Source: Deltaproteobacteria bacterium (lineage in GTDB: Bacteria; Myxococcota_A; Polyangia; GCA-2747355; JADLHG01). From it: a stretch of DNA of 64,000 bases. Positions 3 to 14,643 of the stretch are shown in pieces. The notes under the pieces were generated by a model. The model did not search any database. It saw only the letters and a program-made list of their open reading frames with translations, and had not been told where the DNA came from. The stretch lies in contig JADLHG010000005.1 of assembly GCA_020848905.1 (NCBI GenBank), forward strand, positions 3,423 through 67,422, in the 5' to 3' direction. How positions within the stretch are numbered: the stretch's first letter is position 1; each line of letters starts with the position of its first letter. A program made the translations under genes and the position numbers.

Positions 3-1100
3 AGCGCGGCGTGGGTCGGGACCTTCAACCGCGAGAAGAATCGCCGCGGCGCGAACCTCTTCTACAAGATCAACGGCGAGAGCGGAAAGATCGAGGCCTC
101 GGTCACGATGCCCGCGGGGCACAAGTCCTACGGCTGCATGGCCGATTCGAACCACATCATCTGGTCCACCGACATCTACGGCTCGCTGGCCTTCCTCTCC
201 ACGATCACCAACCAGGCGGGGCCGCTCCTCAAGGCGCCGTGGGTCCCCAAGGCCGGACGCGAGTACCACCACTACGGCATCACCGTCGACGGCGACCAGC
301 GCGTCTGGCTCGGCGGGTACCACTCGTCGTGGGTCCTCCGGTACGCGCCCAAGCGGGACAACTTCGACGCGCTCAGCAAGGGTGTCTGGACGCGCATCGA
401 CGTTCCCGACGGCTGGGTCACGCGCGGCATCGCGGCCGACAACCGCGGCAAGGTCTGGGTCGCCATCGAGTCGGGCGCGATTCTGCGGCTGGAGCAGAGC
501 ATCCCCGACGGCGTGCACGACATGACCGGCGTGAAGGAGGGCAAGGACTACTGGCCCATCGCGGCGCGCGAGGTGATCGGCGCGGGCATCGACCTGGCGG
601 GTCACATCTGGGGGGTGGGCAAGGACAACGACACCGCCGCGCGGCTCGACGTGGACGCGCAGGGCAACGTCGTCACGCCGGCGACGGGGAACACGAACAA
701 GGTCACCCTCGGACGCAACCCGTACACCTACAGCGACTTCACCGGCTACGGCCTGATGACCTTCCTCCGCCCGAACGGGCGATACGTCTACCACCACCAG
801 CCGTGCAAGGCCGGCGAGAAGGCGATCTGGCAGTCGGTGACCTGGAACGCCACCGCGCCTGCGGGCACCTCCGTCTCGGTGCGCGTGCGCACCGGGGACT
901 CCGAGGCCAGCATGGGCCCCTGGTCCGCGCCGTTCACCAGCTCGCCCGCCTTCTTCGGACCGGGCTCGCCGCGCGCGATCAGCCCGAATCCGTCGGCCGT
1001 CATGCACGTGGAGGTGAACCTCGCCAGCCAGATCAAGGACGTGACCCCCATCGTGCACGACTACACGGTCGGGTTCGTCTGCGTGGCCAAGACGGGCTAA
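3..1100 (+). CDS. hypothetical beta-propeller-like protein (5' partial, continues upstream of the window)
   Basis: The frame is open from position 3 with no stop and runs to TAA at 1098-1100. Codon third positions are GC-rich. The only family resemblance is a repetitive W/G-rich architecture suggestive of a beta-propeller. Confidence 0.55.
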   Translation, partial: SAAWVGTFNREKNRRGANLFYKINGESGKIEASVTMPAGHKSYGCMADSNHIIWSTDIYGSLAFLSTITNQAGPLLKAPWVPKAGREYHHYGITVDGDQRVWLGGYHSSWVLRYAPKRDNFDALSKGVWTRIDVPDGWVTRGIAADNRGKVWVAIESGAILRLEQSIPDGVHDMTGVKEGKDYWPIAAREVIGAGIDLAGHIWGVGKDNDTAARLDVDAQGNVVTPATGNTNKVTLGRNPYTYSDFTGYGLMTFLRPNGRYVYHHQPCKAGEKAIWQSVTWNATAPAGTSVSVRVRTGDSEASMGPWSAPFTSSPAFFGPGSPRAISPNPSAVMHVEVNLASQIKDVTPIVHDYTVGFVCVAKTG

Positions 1101-1209
1101 CGGCCCCGCCCGCTCGACGCCGCCGCGCAACGCCGCGCTTGTCATCGCCTGCCCGAGGGACCACAATCGGCCTCGCTTGGCCGCCGCACCCGCGCCCCAC
1201 GGAAGAGGA

Positions 1210-2118
1210 ATGCCGAAGAGCCTCCCCCCGGAGACCGATCCGTTCAGCCAGATGTTCGACCGCCGTGACCTGATCCTCGTCACGGGCAAGGGGGGTACGG
1301 GCAAGAGCACCCTCGTCGCCGCGCTGGCCGAGCTCGCCGCCCGGCGACGCGGCTCGGCGGTGGCCGTCGAGATGTCCGTGCACCCCCACCTGCCGGAGCT
1401 CCTCGGACCGAGCACCCAGGTCCAGACGGTCTGCGTCGACCTGGAGCAGGCCGTCCCGGCGGCGATGGGGCGTCTCCTCCGGCTGCCCGCGCTCGTCACG
1501 CGGGTCTTCAACAACCGCTTCATCCGGCTCTTCATTCGCACCTCGCCCGCGGTCCGCGAGATGATCCTGCTCGACGAGCTGCACCACCTCGTGGAGGTGA
1601 ACTCGCGCCGCAGAACACCGGTGATCGTGGACCTCCCGGCCTCGGGCCACGCGCTCTCCTTCCTCGACACCCCGCGCGCCGTCAACCGCATGCTGCGCGT
1701 CGGACCGCTGGCTCAGGTGGCGGCGCGCGTCGAGGCGCTGATTCTGGACAGCTCTCGCTGCGAGCTCGTGATCGTCGCGCTCCCCGAGGAGCTGCCGATC
1801 AACGAGACCATCGAGCTCGTCCGCCGCGCCACCGAGATCGGGCTCGCCAGCCGGACCGTGATCGTGAACCAGGTGCCCTCGCCGTCGGTGGATCCCGAGG
1901 ACCGCCCGCTGCTCGACCTCCTCCATCGAGAGGGAGACGCGCAGATCGGCCACTTCGCGAGCATCGCGCGCAGCGGGCTGGACGGCCTGGACCAAGCGCG
2001 CGCGCAGATCGAGCGGCTCCGCTCGGCGCTCGACGACGCCGTGATCGAGCTCCCCTTCCACCTCGACACCGACCCGCGTCGCCGGGTGGCCGCGCTCATC
2101 CGGGCGCTCGTCCCATGA
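1210..2118 (+). CDS. ArsA/GET3-family P-loop ATPase, half-size (first of a split pair)
   Basis: P-loop 'ILVTGKGGTGKST' near the N-terminus and an ArsA signature-like 'DLPASGHALSFLDTP'. ATG at 1210 follows GGAAGAGGA; an alternative TTG start at 1177 is possible. The stop overlaps the next start (ATGA at 2115-2118). Confidence 0.8.
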   Translation: MPKSLPPETDPFSQMFDRRDLILVTGKGGTGKSTLVAALAELAARRRGSAVAVEMSVHPHLPELLGPSTQVQTVCVDLEQAVPAAMGRLLRLPALVTRVFNNRFIRLFIRTSPAVREMILLDELHHLVEVNSRRRTPVIVDLPASGHALSFLDTPRAVNRMLRVGPLAQVAARVEALILDSSRCELVIVALPEELPINETIELVRRATEIGLASRTVIVNQVPSPSVDPEDRPLLDLLHREGDAQIGHFASIARSGLDGLDQARAQIERLRSALDDAVIELPFHLDTDPRRRVAALIRALVP

Positions 2119-3350
2119 CGGCCGCCGGCCTCAAGCAGGTGATCGACGGCGCGCCGCTCGTGGTTTGCGTCGGCCCCGGGGGCGTGGGCAAGACGACGCT
2201 CTCGGCCGTGCTCGCCCTGCACCAGGCGGCCACCGGCGCGCGCTCGCTCGTCCTCACCATCGACCCGGCCCGCCGGCTGGCGGACGCGCTCGACGTGCCC
2301 GGCCTGACCAACGACCCGGTCGCGATCAGCTCCTTCGGCAAGATGCACCCCGGCGGCACGCTCAGCGCGCTGATGCTCGACCCGTCGGCGACCTTCGACC
2401 ATCTGATCGCGCTGCTGGTCGCGGACCCCGACCGGCGACGCGCCCTGCTGGAAAACCGGACCTACCAGTACGTCTCGCGCTACCTCGCCGGAACGCTCGA
2501 ATACATGGCCGTGGAGCGCCTGCACGCGCTGACCCAGGGCGGCGCCTACGACCGGATCGTCCTCGACACGCCGCCCACGAGCAACGCCATCGACTTCCTC
2601 GAGGCCCCGGACCGCCTGGCGACCTTCTTCAGCGACCAGGTGATCAGCCGCTTCATGCCCAAGCAGCAGACCTCGTGGACCTCGCGGCTTCTCAACCGGG
2701 CCAGCTCATCGGTGCTCTCGCTCCTCAACCGCGTCGCCGGAGACACCTTCGTCGAGGACGTCGTCAACTTCGTCTCCACCTTCGGCGACCTCTTCGGCCA
2801 GTTCCGCGAGCGCGGCATCGCGGTGGGCAAGACCCTCCGCGACCCGCGCACGGCCTTCGTCATCGTCTGCGCCCCCGACCAGAACCGGCTCGCCGAGGCG
2901 CGTTCGATCGACGAGCGGCTCCAGCAGGCCGGCTGCCGGGCGCACGCCTTCATCGTCAACCGGGTCGACGCGCCCTTCCTCTCCACCCCCGGGGACGACG
3001 CGCTCGCCCGCGCCACGGTCCTCCTCGGGGGAGCGGCGGAGCGTCCGCGCGTCCAGGCCTTCATCGAGCGCCTCGAGCAGCTGCGACGTAGCTACGACTC
3101 CTCCGCCGCGACGCACGCGCAGGCGGTCGAGTCGCTCCGGGCCTACGCGGCGCCGCGGCCCGTCTTCACGGCCCCCCGCGTCCCCCCCGGCGAGAGCCCT
3201 CGCGCCGCGCTCCTGGCCCTCTACCTCGGCCTCTTCGCCGACACGACCGACACGACCGACGCGACCGCGGCGGGCGCGCCCCCCCCGCTCCCGCCCGACG
3301 ACGGAGCGCGCCGCTCGATTTTCGGTCGCCGTCGAACGGACCGGCCGTGA
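2115..3350 (+). CDS. ArsA/GET3-family P-loop ATPase (second of the split pair)
   Basis: P-loop 'VCVGPGGVGKTTL' and ArsA-like 'DTPPTSNAIDFLEAPDRL'. Start and stop are both coupled by 4-bp overlaps: ATGA with the upstream gene and GTGA with the downstream KAS III. Confidence 0.8.
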   Translation: MTAAGLKQVIDGAPLVVCVGPGGVGKTTLSAVLALHQAATGARSLVLTIDPARRLADALDVPGLTNDPVAISSFGKMHPGGTLSALMLDPSATFDHLIALLVADPDRRRALLENRTYQYVSRYLAGTLEYMAVERLHALTQGGAYDRIVLDTPPTSNAIDFLEAPDRLATFFSDQVISRFMPKQQTSWTSRLLNRASSSVLSLLNRVAGDTFVEDVVNFVSTFGDLFGQFRERGIAVGKTLRDPRTAFVIVCAPDQNRLAEARSIDERLQQAGCRAHAFIVNRVDAPFLSTPGDDALARATVLLGGAAERPRVQAFIERLEQLRRSYDSSAATHAQAVESLRAYAAPRPVFTAPRVPPGESPRAALLALYLGLFADTTDTTDATAAGAPPPLPPDDGARRSIFGRRRTDRP

Positions 3351-4408
3351 CCCTCTCGGCCAAGATCGAGAGCCTCGGCGTCTACCTGCCCGACAAGTCG
3401 CTCACCACCGAGGAGCTCCTCGGCGCCTGCCGGCACCGGCCGCGGCTCGACTTCGAGCGCATCACGGGCATCCACGAGCGCCGGGTCGCCGAGGGCGAGT
3501 ACTCGATCGACCTCGCGGTCAAGGCGGCCCAGCGCGCGCTGAAGATGTCGCGATACTCGGCCGAGGACCTCGACCTCTTGATCTGCACCAGCATCTCGAA
3601 GCACCACCGGCAAGACGAGTTCACCTTCGAACCGGCCACGGCCGTGCTGGTGCGCCGAGCCATCGGGGCCCGCAGAGCCCTCTGCTTCGACGTCGTGAAC
3701 GCCTGCGCCGGCATGCTCAACGGCATCTACGTGCTGCAGGGGATGCTGCGCAGCGGCGCCATCCGCTGCGGCATGGTCGTGAGCGGGGAGCAGAACATGC
3801 CGCTCGCCTGGACGGCCACGCGGGAGATCCGGCACCGCCTCGACCGGCAGCTCGCCTCGCTGTCGCTGGGCGACTGCGGCGCCGCGCTCATCCTCGACGG
3901 TGCGGAGGACGACGCGCGCGGCTTCCGTCACCTGGAGCTGATCACCGGGGCCAAGCACTCGCACTACTGCCACTCGCAGCCCTCGTCGCGCGGCTCCGGC
4001 GGCGTGCTGATCACCAAGGCCATCGGCCTGCAGCGCAAAGGGGCCGAGCACTTCCCCTTCTACTTCAAGGAGGCCGTGCACAAGAGCGGCTGGGGCCTGG
4101 AGGAGCTGGACCACATCATCCCGCACCAGGTCTCGGTGCGCGCCATCCGGCGCGGGATCAAGGAGGTCAGTCGCTTCATGGGCTGCGAGCTGCCCGACCG
4201 CTACCTCTGCTGCGCCGAGAAGTACGGCAACACGACCACCACCAGCCACTTCCTCGTGCTGCACGAGTTCATCCTCCGCGGCCAGATCCAGCCGGGGCAC
4301 AAGCTCCTCTTCGTCAGCGGCGCCTCGGGGATCGTGATCACCCATGCGACCTACGCCATGGACGACCTCCCCGACCGCTATCGCCGCGCGCAGGAAGCGG
4401 AGAGCTAA
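3347..4408 (+). CDS. 3-oxoacyl-ACP synthase III (FabH-like KAS III), catalytically complete
   Basis: Begins 'ESLGVYLPD...', typical of FabH. Catalytic Cys is in 'FDVVNACAGMLNG', His in 'IPHQVS' and Asn in 'YGNTTTTS'. GTG start at 3347 overlaps the upstream stop (GTGA). Confidence 0.85.
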   Translation: MTLSAKIESLGVYLPDKSLTTEELLGACRHRPRLDFERITGIHERRVAEGEYSIDLAVKAAQRALKMSRYSAEDLDLLICTSISKHHRQDEFTFEPATAVLVRRAIGARRALCFDVVNACAGMLNGIYVLQGMLRSGAIRCGMVVSGEQNMPLAWTATREIRHRLDRQLASLSLGDCGAALILDGAEDDARGFRHLELITGAKHSHYCHSQPSSRGSGGVLITKAIGLQRKGAEHFPFYFKEAVHKSGWGLEELDHIIPHQVSVRAIRRGIKEVSRFMGCELPDRYLCCAEKYGNTTTTSHFLVLHEFILRGQIQPGHKLLFVSGASGIVITHATYAMDDLPDRYRRAQEAES

Positions 4409-4409
4409 G

Positions 4410-5291
4410 ATGCTCCGTTGCCGCATGGCCAGCCTCGGGGCGAGCCTGCCGGGGCCCCGCTGGCGCCGCCGGGGCTCCCTCTGGCACGCACAGAAGGCGG
4501 GAAAGGAGTGCCTGGCCCGCTCGCCGTACCGACCCTCCGACGTCGAGGTGCTGATCAACACCGGCGTGAACCGCGACGGCCACACCTGCGAGCCGGCCAT
4601 CGCGACCTACGTGCTCAAGGCCCTGGGCATCAACACCGACTTCCGCGGGAGCCGGACGCTCGGCTTCGACCTGCTCAACGGCGGCTGCGGGATGCTGAAC
4701 GCCGCCCAGGTCCTCGCGACGTTGATGCAGAGCGGCCAGGCCCGGGTCGGGATGGTCGTCTCCAGCGAGGCGAACAGCGACCGCGACCCCGACCCTGCCT
4801 ATCGCTACCCGCCGAGCGGCGCGGCGGTGCTCCTCGACATCGCGCCCCTCTCCGGAACGGGCTTCGGCGCCTTCGCCTTCCGCACCCTCGACGAGCACGC
4901 GGACCTCTACTCCTCGGTGGTCAACATGACCGGGAAGCACGGACGCCTGCTGCTCCGTCGAAAGGACGAGCTCGACGCGGCCTATCGCCAGGGCGCCGCC
5001 GAGGTGGTCGAGGAGGTGCTCTCCCAGGGCCACCTGGCGCGAGATGACCTGGACCTCGTCATCCCCGCCCAGCTCTCGGGGCCCTTCCTCGCCGAGCTCC
5101 CGGCCGCCATCGGCCTGCCGCGCGAGAAGGTGCTCGACCTCTCCAGCGTCCTCGAGGACACCCTGACCACCTCGGTCTTTCTCGCCACGCACCACGCCCT
5201 CGAGACGGGCCGGGCGGGCCCCGGAAAGACCGCCCTGCTCCTGGCCTTCGGCTCCGGCGTGACGGTGGGAGCCGCCACCTACCGCTTCTGA
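4410..5291 (+). CDS. FabH-like (KAS III fold) protein lacking catalytic His/Asn, probable non-catalytic heterodimer partner
   Basis: Thiolase/FabH fold with Cys retained in 'LLNGGCGMLNAAQ'. 'IPAQLSG' replaces the PHQ motif and 'EDTLTTS' replaces GNT. It starts 2 nt after the upstream stop; an alternative start at 4425 is possible. Confidence 0.7.
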   Translation: MLRCRMASLGASLPGPRWRRRGSLWHAQKAGKECLARSPYRPSDVEVLINTGVNRDGHTCEPAIATYVLKALGINTDFRGSRTLGFDLLNGGCGMLNAAQVLATLMQSGQARVGMVVSSEANSDRDPDPAYRYPPSGAAVLLDIAPLSGTGFGAFAFRTLDEHADLYSSVVNMTGKHGRLLLRRKDELDAAYRQGAAEVVEEVLSQGHLARDDLDLVIPAQLSGPFLAELPAAIGLPREKVLDLSSVLEDTLTTSVFLATHHALETGRAGPGKTALLLAFGSGVTVGAATYRF

Positions 5292-5377: not shown

Positions 5378-7519
<2,142 letters not shown>

Positions 7520-7703: not shown

Positions 7704-7864
7704 CAGAGCGTTGCGTAAGTTCGTTGGCAGTTGATTCGATGATGGTCCTTCCCAAACTCGGAACGCTCGCGTTCCCCCTCCATACCCCGACACTCACTCT
7801 CTATCGAGAGTAAACAACCGGTGCCTCCTCGCCGGAGCTGCCAACGAACTTATGCAGCGCTCTG
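7704..7864. repeat. 27-bp imperfect inverted repeats (25/27 match) flanking about 105 bp, with a nested palindrome, inside a 470-bp AT-richer intergenic region
   Basis: Left arm 7704-7730 'cagagcgttgcgtaagttcgttggcag'. Right arm 7838-7864 is its reverse complement with 2 mismatches. The internal palindrome is 'ggaacgctcgcgttcc'. Confidence 0.7.
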
Positions 7865-7989
7865 CTTCGCAGGGCGCTGCCGCGTCCGGAGGGGTGACCT
7901 CGTCTCGGGGACCCGCTCGCCCGGACCCCCTCCCGCGCAATCCCGATCGGCTATACTGCCTGCCACTTGAGAGACGAAGTGCGCACGCC

Positions 7990-9795
7990 ATGACCACCCG
8001 CAAGACCATCACCCAGCTCCTTCACGACCAGGCCGAGCGCTACGGCGATCGCGTGAGCCACTACCACTGGGAGCGCGGCCAGTGGCGCAGCATGACCTGG
8101 AGGCAGGTGCGCCAGGTCTCGCGCGAGGTGGCCTTCGGGCTCTGGAGCCTGGGCTGCCGCAAGGGGGACAAGGTCGGACTCGTCAGCGAGACCCGCTGGG
8201 AGTGGACCTGCATCGACGGCGGGTGCCTCGGCTTCGGCGCGGTCGTGGTGGGCATCTACCCGACGAGCACCCCCGAGCAGGTGGCCTACATCCTCGCGCA
8301 CAGCGAAGCGAAGGTGGTCTTCGTCGAGAACGCGGCCCAGCTCGCCAAGCTGAACGAGCTCCGCGATCGCTTCCCCGCGCTCCAGGCCGTGGTGGTGATC
8401 GATCCGCCCGACGGCGGCAAGCCCGACGGGTGGTTGACCCTCGAGGGCCTGCGCGAGAAGGGACGCGCGCTGGAAGGACAGGAGCCGGCGCTCCTCGACC
8501 GCGCGCGCGAGGCCGTGCTCCCCGAGGACGTGGCCACGCTGGTCTACACCAGCGGCACGACGGGCCCGCCCAAGGGGGTCGTCTGCACCCATCGCGCCTT
8601 CTTCGACATCGCGGACCTGAGCGTGCGGCACCTCGGCTTCGGCGACGAGGACGTGAGCGTGGTCTTTCTGCCCCTCGCCCACTCGCTCCAGCGCGTCAGC
8701 CTCTACGGCGGGGTGCGCGCGGGGATGACCGGCTACTACGCGCCGAGCCTCGACCGCCTGATGGAGACAGTCCAGGCCGCGCGGCCCACCACCATGGCCA
8801 GCGTGCCGCGCATCTTCGAGAAGGTGCACAGCCGGATCGTGACCGGGCTGGCTCAGCAGCCCGAGCGGCGGCGCAAGCTCTTCACGGCCGCGATGAAGGT
8901 CGGTCGAGCCCGGAGCCGCTGTCTGCAAGAGAGGCGCCCCGTCCCCCTGCACCTGCGCCTCGGCTACGCGCTCTTCGACCGGCTGGTCTTCAGCAAAGTC
9001 CGCGCGCGCCTCTTCGGCCCGCGCCTGCGCTTCCTCGTCTCGGGGGGCGCGCCGATCAGCCGCGAGCTGCTCGAGTTCTTCCACGCCATGGGGATCCTGA
9101 TCCTCGAGGGCTACGGCCTGACCGAGACGAGCGCCCCGGCCACCGTGAATCACCCCGACGACTTCCGCTTCGGGACGGTGGGCAAGGCGCTCAAGGGGGT
9201 GGGGATCAAGATCGCCCCCGACGGGGAGATTCTGATCAACGGTCCCGGACTCTTCCGCGAGTACTACAAGGATCCGGCCGCCACGCGCGAGGCGATCGAC
9301 GAAGAGGGGTGGTTCCACTCGGGCGACATCGGCGAGCTGGACGCCGACGGCTTCTTGCGCATCACCGACCGCAAGAAGGACCTGATCATCACCGCGGCCG
9401 GCAAGAACGTGGCCCCGCAGAACATCGAGAACCTGATCAAGACCGACCGCCACATCAGCCAGGTGATGGTGCACGGCGACCGCCGGAACTACCTCGTAGC
9501 GCTCGTGACCCTCGACGCCGACGAGCTGGCCGCCTGGGCCAAGTCGAACGGCAAGGCCGGGGCGCGCCTCGAGCAGCTCGCAGCAGACCCGGCGGTCCAG
9601 GGACTCGTGGCGAAGATCATCGACGAGAAGAACGCGCAGCTCGCCCGGTACGAGACGGTGAAGAAGTTCCGCGTGCTGGCGGAGGACTTCACCGTCGAGA
9701 ACGGCATGCTCACGCCGACCATGAAGGTCAAGCGCCGGGTGATCGAGAAGAGGTACCGGAGCCTGCTCGACGAAATGTACGGGGAAGGAGGGTAG
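7990..9795 (+). CDS. long-chain fatty-acid--CoA ligase (AMP-binding, FadD-like)
   Basis: AMP-binding motif 'LVYTSGTTGPPKGV' and 'GYGLTETS'. The ATG at 7990 is the first Met after the intergenic region. Confidence 0.85.
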   Translation: MTTRKTITQLLHDQAERYGDRVSHYHWERGQWRSMTWRQVRQVSREVAFGLWSLGCRKGDKVGLVSETRWEWTCIDGGCLGFGAVVVGIYPTSTPEQVAYILAHSEAKVVFVENAAQLAKLNELRDRFPALQAVVVIDPPDGGKPDGWLTLEGLREKGRALEGQEPALLDRAREAVLPEDVATLVYTSGTTGPPKGVVCTHRAFFDIADLSVRHLGFGDEDVSVVFLPLAHSLQRVSLYGGVRAGMTGYYAPSLDRLMETVQAARPTTMASVPRIFEKVHSRIVTGLAQQPERRRKLFTAAMKVGRARSRCLQERRPVPLHLRLGYALFDRLVFSKVRARLFGPRLRFLVSGGAPISRELLEFFHAMGILILEGYGLTETSAPATVNHPDDFRFGTVGKALKGVGIKIAPDGEILINGPGLFREYYKDPAATREAIDEEGWFHSGDIGELDADGFLRITDRKKDLIITAAGKNVAPQNIENLIKTDRHISQVMVHGDRRNYLVALVTLDADELAAWAKSNGKAGARLEQLAADPAVQGLVAKIIDEKNAQLARYETVKKFRVLAEDFTVENGMLTPTMKVKRRVIEKRYRSLLDEMYGEGG

Positions 9796-12562: not shown

Positions 12563-13885
12563 TCAGAGCAGGATCAGCTCGATCCCCGAGAACATACCAA
12601 AGACGTGTCCCCCGACGTCGCTCCCCTGCACCGAGCGCGTCACGTACCAGAGCTCCTGTACCGAGAGGTCGAGGTGGAGCCAGCCCGGGATGACCCCCCA
12701 GGGGCGCAGGAAGCTCGCGCGCGCGCCGAGCGCGAAGGTGTGGCGGTCGCAGTCGTAGGTCGGCAGGTCGGTCGATCGGATCGGCGAGCGCTCGAAGGAG
12801 TACCCCGCGCGCCCCGTGAGCCACGAGACGAGCTTGTACTCGGCACCGACGCGCGGGACGAGCATGTCGGTCCAGCGGATCTGCGGCTTGAGCGGGTCGA
12901 GGAGCTTCGCGTTGGGGCCGAGGAAGAGCCGGAGCCCGGGGTCCTTGGCGAGCTGCTCGATGTCGAGCGAGATCTTGGGGTACGGGATCTCGAAGTTGGT
13001 GTAGTCCACCCAGGTCAGATCGGCCGAGACGAGGAGCCGCCGCCCGCGATACGACACCCCGAGGCTGACCTGCTGCGGATGGTACTTCGAACGGATCGTC
13101 GCCTTCGCCTTGACGGGCATGTTGATCTTCGTCGTGTCGGAGACCGAGAGCCGCGTGTACAGATCGAGGGGGAGCTCGACGGAGACGAACTGCGGACCGC
13201 GGTAGGTCGCGCCGATGCGGAAGCGCCCGAGGAAGGCCATCGCCCCGCCGGTGAAGAAGGCGTCGGTCGGCACGTCGGCGTTCATCCAGGCTTCGAGCCG
13301 CAGGTCGGGGTCGGCCGCGCCTCCCCCTCCGCCACCCGGCTGGAAGGGGGCGTAGAAGCTGACCGCGCCGTAGACCGCTCCGGCGAGCTGGAGTCCGGCG
13401 CCGAACGCCAGCCAGCGCAGGGGTCGCCACGGAACGCGGCCCCCGAAACCCACGCGCAGCTGAAAGACCTGCACCGCCGAGTCGTACATCACGAAGTAGG
13501 GCTCGCTCTTCTGATAGAGCCGCGACTCGAAGAGCTTGCCGGTGGGCAGGTTCAGCGAGAAGCCGAAGGCCAGGTACTCCTTGAGTCGGCCCGAGAGGGG
13601 CAAGCCGAGGTGCAGGTAGGTCGAGGTCTCGGTGGGCATCCCGACGCTCGCCCCGTTCTCGACGAGCCGCGGAGCCCCGAGGAGAAAGCCCGCCCCGATG
13701 GTCATCCCCTGGAGCTGCACCAGCCCGGCGGGGTTGTAGTAGAGCGCCGCGACGTCCTCGGCCACGGCGGTGTACGCGCCCCCGAGCCCCATCGAGCGCG
13801 GGTGCATGCCGAAGTGGCTCGCCAGGTCGGCCCGGGCGGTATGGGCCGCGAAGAGCAGCCCCAGAACGACGGGTACACGACGCAC
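12563..13885 (-). CDS. outer-membrane transport protein of the FadL/OMPP1/TodX family
   Basis: Family N-terminal motif 'GLGGAYTAVAEDVAALYYNPAGL'. GTG start at 13885 is preceded by AGGGAGG, and the signal peptide is 'RRVPVVLGLLFAAHTARA'. Confidence 0.8.
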   Translation of the reverse strand: MRRVPVVLGLLFAAHTARADLASHFGMHPRSMGLGGAYTAVAEDVAALYYNPAGLVQLQGMTIGAGFLLGAPRLVENGASVGMPTETSTYLHLGLPLSGRLKEYLAFGFSLNLPTGKLFESRLYQKSEPYFVMYDSAVQVFQLRVGFGGRVPWRPLRWLAFGAGLQLAGAVYGAVSFYAPFQPGGGGGGAADPDLRLEAWMNADVPTDAFFTGGAMAFLGRFRIGATYRGPQFVSVELPLDLYTRLSVSDTTKINMPVKAKATIRSKYHPQQVSLGVSYRGRRLLVSADLTWVDYTNFEIPYPKISLDIEQLAKDPGLRLFLGPNAKLLDPLKPQIRWTDMLVPRVGAEYKLVSWLTGRAGYSFERSPIRSTDLPTYDCDRHTFALGARASFLRPWGVIPGWLHLDLSVQELWYVTRSVQGSDVGGHVFGMFSGIELILL

Positions 13886-13896
13886 GGGAACCTCCC

Positions 13897-14643
13897 TCAC
13901 TTGCCCTTGGCGGGTACGTACTGGACCTCGTCGCTGAGCTCGCTCTGCGTCGCTCGACGAAAGGCCTGTACGGCGAAGTAATAGGTGCGGCCCGGAACCA
14001 GGCCTTGCAGACGAAGTCGCGGGCGCATGGCCGGCGTCGGAGAGGGGACGTCGCCCGCGTCGGTGTAGCTCGGTACCCGATCCAGACACCAGGCCTCGGG
14101 GACCTCGAGCGGCGACGCGGCGGGCATACCGGGCAGTCGCCCCGGCTGCGCAGCGGAGCTGTCCTTCGCTCCCGCATCCCGGGGTGTTCCATCGGAGCGA
14201 GCGTCGCTTGCACCGAGGTCCACGCGGCCATCGCGCGCTCCGCCGTCCTGCGACCGCCCGTCGCGCGACGTGCCGTCTCGGGGTCCCGCGTCGCGCGGGC
14301 CGTCCGGCAGCCGCAGATCGGCCGCGATGGTCGTCGTGGGGCCGATGCTGCCGTCGAAGTCGCCGCAGCCCGTCGGCCACGCTACCCAGGAGAGTCCGCG
14401 CCCCTCGTAGGGGACCCCCGCGCGATCGTCGTCGAAATGCAGCCGATAGCCGTCCACGCGCACCACGAGCTTCCAGGAGAGCTCCACCGTTCCCGGCGCC
14501 GCCCCTACGACCGGCGCCACCACCAGCTCCGTGGGTTTGGGCAAGGGGATCGTCTCGCTGCATCCCGCGATCCCGACGAGCGCGAGCAAGACCGCGCCTC
14601 CGGCTGCCTCGCGAGCTCCCCCGCTTGCTGCGTGTCTTTTCAT
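13897..14643 (-). CDS. hypothetical lipoprotein, co-oriented immediately upstream of the FadL-family gene
   Basis: Signal peptide with lipobox 'LLALVGIAGCS'. The stop is 12 nt before the FadL-family start. Confidence 0.55.
   Translation of the reverse strand: MKRHAASGGAREAAGGAVLLALVGIAGCSETIPLPKPTELVVAPVVGAAPGTVELSWKLVVRVDGYRLHFDDDRAGVPYEGRGLSWVAWPTGCGDFDGSIGPTTTIAADLRLPDGPRDAGPRDGTSRDGRSQDGGARDGRVDLGASDARSDGTPRDAGAKDSSAAQPGRLPGMPAASPLEVPEAWCLDRVPSYTDAGDVPSPTPAMRPRLRLQGLVPGRTYYFAVQAFRRATQSELSDEVQYVPAKGK

Follow-up and report, generated by a model that had tools for sequence, protein, structure and literature searches.

The locus considered here lies in a window of 64,000 nucleotides (the whole stretch of DNA that was analysed, G+C content ~70%) and raises the question of what a KAS III paralogue deprived of its catalytic residues contributes to the intact KAS III encoded directly upstream of it. 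The gene in question, kasB (positions 4410–5291, forward strand), encodes a 293-aa protein of the KAS III fold without a Cys-His-Asn triad, and its neighbour kasA (3347–4408, forward strand) encodes a 353-aa protein in which Cys120, His260 and Asn295 are all present. In a preliminary description KasB was regarded as a FabH paralogue that keeps the Cys, has lost the His and Asn, and shapes the acyl-binding tunnel as a non-catalytic, PqsB-like subunit. The reading preferred here, with a probability of roughly 80%, is that KasB and KasA are the beta and alpha subunits, respectively, of a heterodimeric OleA-type thiolase that would condense two acyl-CoAs without decarboxylation, with Glu61 of KasB acting in trans.

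The open reading frame at 4410–5291 had been recognised correctly, and the strings NGGCGMLNA, IPAQLSG and EDTLTTS, on which the preliminary description was built, are all found in its translation. It starts 1 nt past the TAA stop of kasA and is preceded by GGAG ~9 nt upstream. A search of 5.8 billion proteins gave 370 matches to KasB, the best 120 of which provide at least 120 homologues of 55–93% identity; 91 of these 120 are exactly 293 aa long. With so many homologues, most of them equally long, the gene can be taken as real, as can its start codon. Among 63 family sequences of 55–65% identity, 41 alignment columns are invariant and ~60 near-invariant. Searching 1.84 billion cluster representatives with the family profile extended the set to 5662 relatives at E ≤ 1e-3, with 421 at E ≤ 1e-30. 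The sole genome-contig match to the single KasB protein was one distant relative (25% identity) in a betaproteobacterial MAG. In the databases KasB itself (NCBI MCC6746614.1, from a 350-kb contig of a MAG labelled 'Deltaproteobacteria bacterium') is annotated as a 'hypothetical protein'. Its homologues carry the JGI label '3-oxoacyl-ACP synthase III', a misleading name where the triad is absent.

The KAS III fold of KasB is evident from the match to Pfam ACP_syn_III_C (E = 3e-14) and from the AF2 model (pLDDT 88.9, pTM 0.90), which Foldseek superimposes on FabH and OleA structures with TMq values of 0.80–0.85. Against the PDB, FabH structures (TMq ~0.85) are ranked at the top and OleA appears at rank 48. 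The fold alone is thus uninformative as to OleA versus FabH, and the link to OleA rests on motifs and on the identity to NltA and NltB discussed below. The NCBIfam KAS III models score KasB at only 52–77 bits overall, with cut-offs of 249–292 (TIGR00747, 52 bits against 292; NF006829, 60 bits against 249). An identity of KasB as an active FabH is ruled out by these scores, far under the cut-offs, together with the absent triad. Additionally, KasB is missing ~35 N-terminal residues, the stretch by which CoA is bound in FabH.

The register of the nucleophile motif decides whether KasB keeps a catalytic Cys. The KasB segment FDLLNGGCGML aligns without gaps with FDVVNACAGML of KasA, FDVAAACAGF of Escherichia coli FabH, FDVANACLAF of Xanthomonas campestris OleA and FDVSNACAGML of NltA. 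In every alignment the residue in the Cys column is Gly92, and the Cys of the preliminary description, Cys93, comes one residue later (codons of Gly92 and Cys93 at 4683–4688, forward strand); the statement that KasB keeps the Cys therefore has to be withdrawn. This register is agreed upon by MAFFT, phmmer, the family profile HMM and tblastn, and the C143S and C143A variants of OleA present in the PDB mark the column of Cys143, with which Gly92 aligns, unambiguously. In 121 close members of the KasB family the Cys column contains Gly in 98, Ala in 17, Asn in three and Ser in three, and the +1 column Cys in 73, Val in 44 and Ala in four. None of 138 more distant KasB-like domains has a Cys in the Cys column, and their +1 position is generically hydrophobic (L/V/I/A/T/C/M). 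In the AF2 model DSSP places the beginning of the helix at residue 95, and residues 81–90 have a pLDDT of 64; the choice between Gly92 and Cys93 is settled by the sequence alignments and conservation, not by the model.

The other two triad positions are occupied by Ala220 (codon at 5067–5069, forward strand) in the column of FabH His244, and by Asp250 (codon at 5157–5159, forward strand) in that of FabH Asn274. The alignments bear out the replacement of His by Ala; the column contains Ala in 96, Ser in 24 and Pro in one of the 121 close homologues, and Pro in 103, Ser in 13 and Ala in 12 members of the wider family. As for the Asn, its absence stands, and the view that it was simply lost does not, for it is substituted by an Asp that is invariant in all 121 close homologues and recurs in 123 of the 138 KasB-like domains of the wider family. 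Such strong conservation of Asp250 in a supposedly dead pocket is worth mentioning, as is the Asp at the Asn position of NltB. The preliminary description had also considered that the His and Asn might merely have shifted elsewhere in the fold, and this is not what was found. The other invariant His and Asn of KasB, His58 and Asn50, sit in the segment around Glu61, outside KasB's own catalytic pocket; in OleA the equivalent segment is given to the active site of the partner. In four independent alignment methods Gly92, Ala220 and Asp250 stand in for the nucleophilic Cys, the His and the Asn, all three of which are gone from KasB.

What KasB has instead is revealed when its N-terminal half alone is used as a query, the top PDB matches then being X. 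campestris OleA structures. The OleA segment SRDY--LEPSTA aligns with NRDGHTCEPAIA of KasB, which brings Glu61 of KasB (codon at 4590–4592, forward strand) onto Glu117 of OleA (CEPAI and LEPST, respectively); in FabH this position, located at the dimer interface, is held by Phe87. Glu61, the proposed trans-acting catalytic base, lies in an 'EP' motif (CEPA) and is shared by all 121 close homologues and by 130 of 132 KasB-like domains from the wider family. Glu57 of NltB (TVEPAV) falls on the same position, and E60 of LstB is equated with it via the literature, not by the LstB sequence. The residues that precede Glu61, His58, Thr59 and Cys60 (codons at 4581–4589), include two, His58 and Cys60, that are invariant in the 293-aa clade; in the wider family F, Y or H is found at position 58 and S, C, A or F at position 60. 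His58 and Cys60 may line the active site of the partner.

KasA has the features of an LstA/NltA-type alpha subunit: besides its intact triad it has a Glu of its own, Glu95. Its PDB matches include OleA structures (E = 5e-18), the match to PqsC being weak (E = 2.5e-9), and it is 47% identical to NltA over residues 5–144. KasB is ~38% identical to NltB over residues 7–144, the only part aligned by BLAST, the C-terminal half having been aligned by eye. The NltA and NltB genes were taken from the supplement of the Nocardia paper as machine-read (OCR) DNA that contains frameshifts. Within the segment FDLMNGATG, NltB has Ala in the Cys column, and Asp stands at the FabH Asn position (GDPHTA).

The description of KasB as a triad-less KAS III paralogue and partner of the adjacent intact KAS III is well supported by the related loci. 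In all 46 of those with enough flanking sequence a kasA gene lies directly upstream of kasB. Furthermore, among the 150 listed of the 5662 relatives there are at least 81 natural fusions (for example P0128, P0130, P0135, P0136 and P0139, within P0128–P0270), in which a Cys/His/Asn domain is followed by a triad-less, Glu-bearing domain, always in the same order as the two genes. A physical interaction of KasA and KasB is thereby strongly, if indirectly, supported, and the spacing of only 1 nt between the two genes points the same way. KasB almost certainly works as a partner, probably an obligate one, of the adjacent intact enzyme. Several of the fusions form the C-terminal didomain of NRPS modules (C-A-T-KASIII-KASIII'), an arrangement that suggests a function in off-loading or condensation where non-ribosomal peptides are combined with lipids.

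The division of labour proposed for KasA and KasB has precedents. In OleA, a homodimer, the alpha-carbon is deprotonated by a Glu that the other chain extends into the active site. The lipstatin and nocardiolactone pathways divide the roles of OleA between two adjacent KAS III genes, lstAB and nltAB. LstA contains the triad C128/H271/N305; LstB and NltB are truncated and lack the Cys-His-Asn residues, and their E60 and E57, respectively, were found to be essential by mutagenesis. Both pairs are soluble and active only when the subunits are co-expressed, and their product is a 2-alkyl-3-keto acid. Counterparts of LstB are widespread and always adjoin an lstA gene.

By analogy, KasA and KasB would form a heterodimer with one active site, that of KasA, the only one with a complete set of Cys120, His260 and Asn295. 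An acyl-CoA would acylate Cys120 of KasA, and Glu61 of KasB, situated on a segment predicted to cross the KAS III dimer interface and thus to reach into the active site of KasA, would be supplied in trans and remove the alpha-proton of the acyl chain attached to that Cys. The resulting carbanion would then attack a second acyl-CoA in a non-decarboxylative head-to-head Claisen condensation, giving rise to a 2-alkyl-3-keto fatty acid. This acid could be reduced by a reductase encoded elsewhere, or could decarboxylate to a ketone; for most relatives, conversion to a 2-alkyl-3-hydroxy acid by an adjacent OleD-like reductase is expected, with acyl-CoAs supplied by an adjacent FadD-like ligase. The preliminary description had predicted unusual starters such as long or branched acyl-CoAs, and long-chain acyl-CoAs are indeed the likely substrates of KasA and KasB.

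The alternative that survives best, though it is unlikely, is the one preferred in the preliminary description, namely that KasB is a purely structural, PqsB-like partner contributing no catalytic residue, while KasA handles an unusual starter by FabH- or PqsC-like chemistry. It would account for the loss of the whole triad, as in PqsB, and for the constant pairing of KasB with an intact KAS III, and the weak match between KasA and PqsC mentioned above also fits it. However, similarity between KasB and PqsB was detectable neither by sequence nor by profile: PqsB is not among the PDB matches of the single KasB sequence (E ≤ 0.01) or of the family profile (E ≤ 1e-5), and there are no pqs genes near kasAB in the window. 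KasA is far closer to NltA than to PqsC. PqsC lacks the Asn and works as a Cys-His dyad enzyme, whereas KasA keeps Asn295. To our knowledge, PqsB does not supply a catalytic Glu. The near-universal presence of Glu61 in more than 250 KasB-like sequences likewise speaks against a structural role alone, the equivalent Glu being essential in LstB and NltB. Since KasB retains the Glu that serves as the catalytic base in OleA, LstB and NltB, it is probably not merely a scaffold that shapes the tunnel.

Very unlikely is that KasB, alone or within the dimer, acts as a KAS III-like acyltransferase of the CerJ/ChlB3/DpsC type with Cys93 as its nucleophile. A Cys right beside the canonical position, a weak PDB match to ChlB3 (E = 6e-4) and the Asp in place of the Asn would be in keeping with such an activity, Asp replacing Asn in some KAS III-like acyltransferases (DpsC). 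Nevertheless, Cys93 is variable among the close homologues and mostly L, V or I in the wider family, and the Cys column proper is occupied by G, A, N or S, the last of these in only three of 121 sequences. Moreover, the pocket contains no His, and the N-terminal segment by which FabH binds CoA is deleted. Finally, the notion that KasB is a decaying, non-functional leftover from the tandem duplication of a KAS III gene, to which the loss of all three catalytic residues and the 'hypothetical protein' annotation could lend some credence, is effectively refuted by conservation, that is, by the strict length of 293 aa, the 41 invariant and ~60 near-invariant columns in 63 sequences, the 421 representatives at E ≤ 1e-30, the retention of the domain in at least 81 fusions and the confident AF2 model.

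Returning to the OleA-type reading of KasA and KasB, the surroundings of the two genes were inspected for enzymes acting before or after the condensation. kasA and kasB are the last two genes of an apparent four-gene operon, the first of which (1177–2118, forward strand) encodes an ArsA/Get3-family ATPase with BagA of Mycobacterium tuberculosis as its best NCBIfam match. The second (2115–3350, forward strand) encodes an ATPase of the same family for which M. tuberculosis BagB is the best NCBIfam match; it matches Pfam ArsA_ATPase and scores 243 bits with NCBIfam NF053621 (cut-off 521). The two ATPase genes overlap by 4 nt, as do the stop of the second and the start of kasA (ATGA and GTGA). Upstream of the BagA-like gene a promoter-like site is discernible at 1139–1167, albeit on weak evidence. 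Directly upstream of the operon, where relatives carry an OleD-like reductase gene, the window contains a 330-aa open reading frame (108–1100, forward strand). It was considered as the missing reductase and ruled out, having no Pfam or NCBIfam match.

Directly downstream of kasB lies a gene (5378–7519, forward strand) for a 713-aa DUF255/Thioredox_DsbH protein with a weak GlcNAc 2-epimerase-like region; as a neighbour it is conserved only in the closest relative, locus L005, and is therefore probably unrelated to the kasAB pair. It is followed by a gene (7852–9795, forward strand) for a 647-aa FadD-type long-chain acyl-CoA ligase with AMP-binding and AMP-binding_C_3 domains, which also follows the pair in L005, a locus of 93% identity. 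Beyond these two comes an M23 peptidase gene, and at 12563–14563 on the reverse strand a FadL/TodX-family outer-membrane transporter is encoded. Transporter and ligase, both encoded less than 10 kb downstream of kasAB, might import fatty acid substrates and activate them. When the 64-kb window was searched by tblastn for orthologues of the OleD-like and FadD-like genes of the relatives, none were found, the sole match being the unrelated ligase at 7852–9795 with 25% identity.

Altogether 87 related loci were examined, the counts below referring to those with enough flanking sequence. In 24 of 38 loci the gene that directly precedes kasA encodes an OleD-like SDR, and a FadD-type acyl-CoA ligase gene is present upstream in 17 of 32. 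The top NCBIfam match of the SDR is NF042422 (2-alkyl-3-oxoalkanoate reductase OleD), with 187–231 bits against a cut-off of 580, and HpnA scores nearly as high as OleD. The adjacent AMP-binding enzyme of the relatives scores as a FadD-type acyl-CoA ligase. In the gene lists read for the related loci neither an OleC-type beta-lactone synthetase nor OleB was seen, and the window does not contain a cluster of the Ole/Lst/Nlt type, with an OleD-type reductase and an OleC-type synthetase. As no synthetase of the OleC/NltC/LstC type was seen beside the pair, its product is probably not a beta-lactone.

A pair of BagA/BagB-like ATPase genes is located directly upstream of kasA in five of 38 loci (L002, L005, L006, L014 and L067), and ATPase genes are found directly downstream of kasB in two more, both of them in L077 and only the first in L087. 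The ATPases thus adjoin kasAB in seven related loci and in two gene orders, a recurrence that suggests a functional link between them and a lipid-condensing enzyme. In the literature on Rv3679/Rv3680 (BagAB) nothing was found tying these ATPases to KAS III enzymes, and the association may be regarded as a testable hint on the function of a poorly understood ATPase pair. A more far-reaching and rather doubtful interpretation is that the KasAB enzymes of this Myxococcota/Acidobacteriota clade stand outside any beta-lactone or olefin pathway and produce a membrane lipid resembling mycolic acids, a 2-alkyl-3-hydroxy compound (or a ketone). In the lineage of the window this synthesis might be functionally linked to a Get3/ArsA pair of the BagA/BagB type, which would deal with the product itself, a very hydrophobic one, or with a membrane protein that it requires. 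If this were true, His58 and Cys60 would be extra residues delivered in trans to the active site of the partner.

The significance of KasB lies partly in correcting an easy misreading, for the Cys of 'NGGCG' resembles the FabH nucleophile and is one residue out of register. A gene annotated as a 'hypothetical protein' or a '3-oxoacyl-ACP synthase III' moves with this correction into a small class, recognised only recently, of split OleA-type thiolases, where the triad comes from one subunit and the base from the other. The kasAB clade is frequent among Myxococcota and Acidobacteriota from the environment, and since no beta-lactone synthetase was seen with it, its products may be long-chain branched lipids of a family not yet characterised.

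Among the known systems, PqsBC of Pseudomonas aeruginosa resembles the pair in that a triad-less subunit of the KAS III fold, PqsB, is combined with a catalytic one; KasB differs from PqsB in the absence of detected sequence similarity, and the gene order and operon context differ as well. FabH shares with KasB the overall fold and the Pfam C-terminal domain; unlike FabH, KasB has none of the Cys, His and Asn residues, contains Glu in place of Phe87 and has the N-terminal CoA-binding segment deleted. The resemblance to OleA of X. campestris (PDB 3ROW, 4KU3 and 5VXD, among others) extends from the fold to the succession of the motifs 'RD..EP' and 'FD..NxC'. However, OleA pairs two identical chains, both of which contain the triad and the Glu, whereas in KasA and KasB these roles appear to be split, with one active site per dimer, and there are no oleBCD genes in the window.

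The greatest likeness is to NltA/NltB of Nocardia brasiliensis and LstA/LstB of Streptomyces toxytricini, in which the two KAS III genes are likewise adjacent, alpha preceding beta. As in LstB and NltB, the beta subunit is the shorter one, lacks the triad and has an 'EP' Glu near residue 60 (E61 in KasB, E57 in NltB, E60 in LstB). In KasA, as in NltA and LstA, the alpha subunit carries Cys-His-Asn, and related kasAB loci contain an OleD/NltD-like reductase gene. Judging from these sequence features, KasB would belong to the already known LstB/NltB class, within which it sits in an uncharacterised environmental clade. In contrast to the Nlt and Lst systems, a beta-lactone synthetase of the OleC/NltC/LstC type is not seen beside kasAB in the gene lists read, the window is without a reductase gene, and kasAB share an operon with BagA/BagB-like ATPase genes. 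The hosts differ too, those of Nlt and Lst being actinomycetes and that of kasAB an uncultured Myxococcota-like organism represented by a MAG. Finally, the KasB clade is set apart from NltB and LstB by the invariant His58 and Cys60 that flank its Glu.
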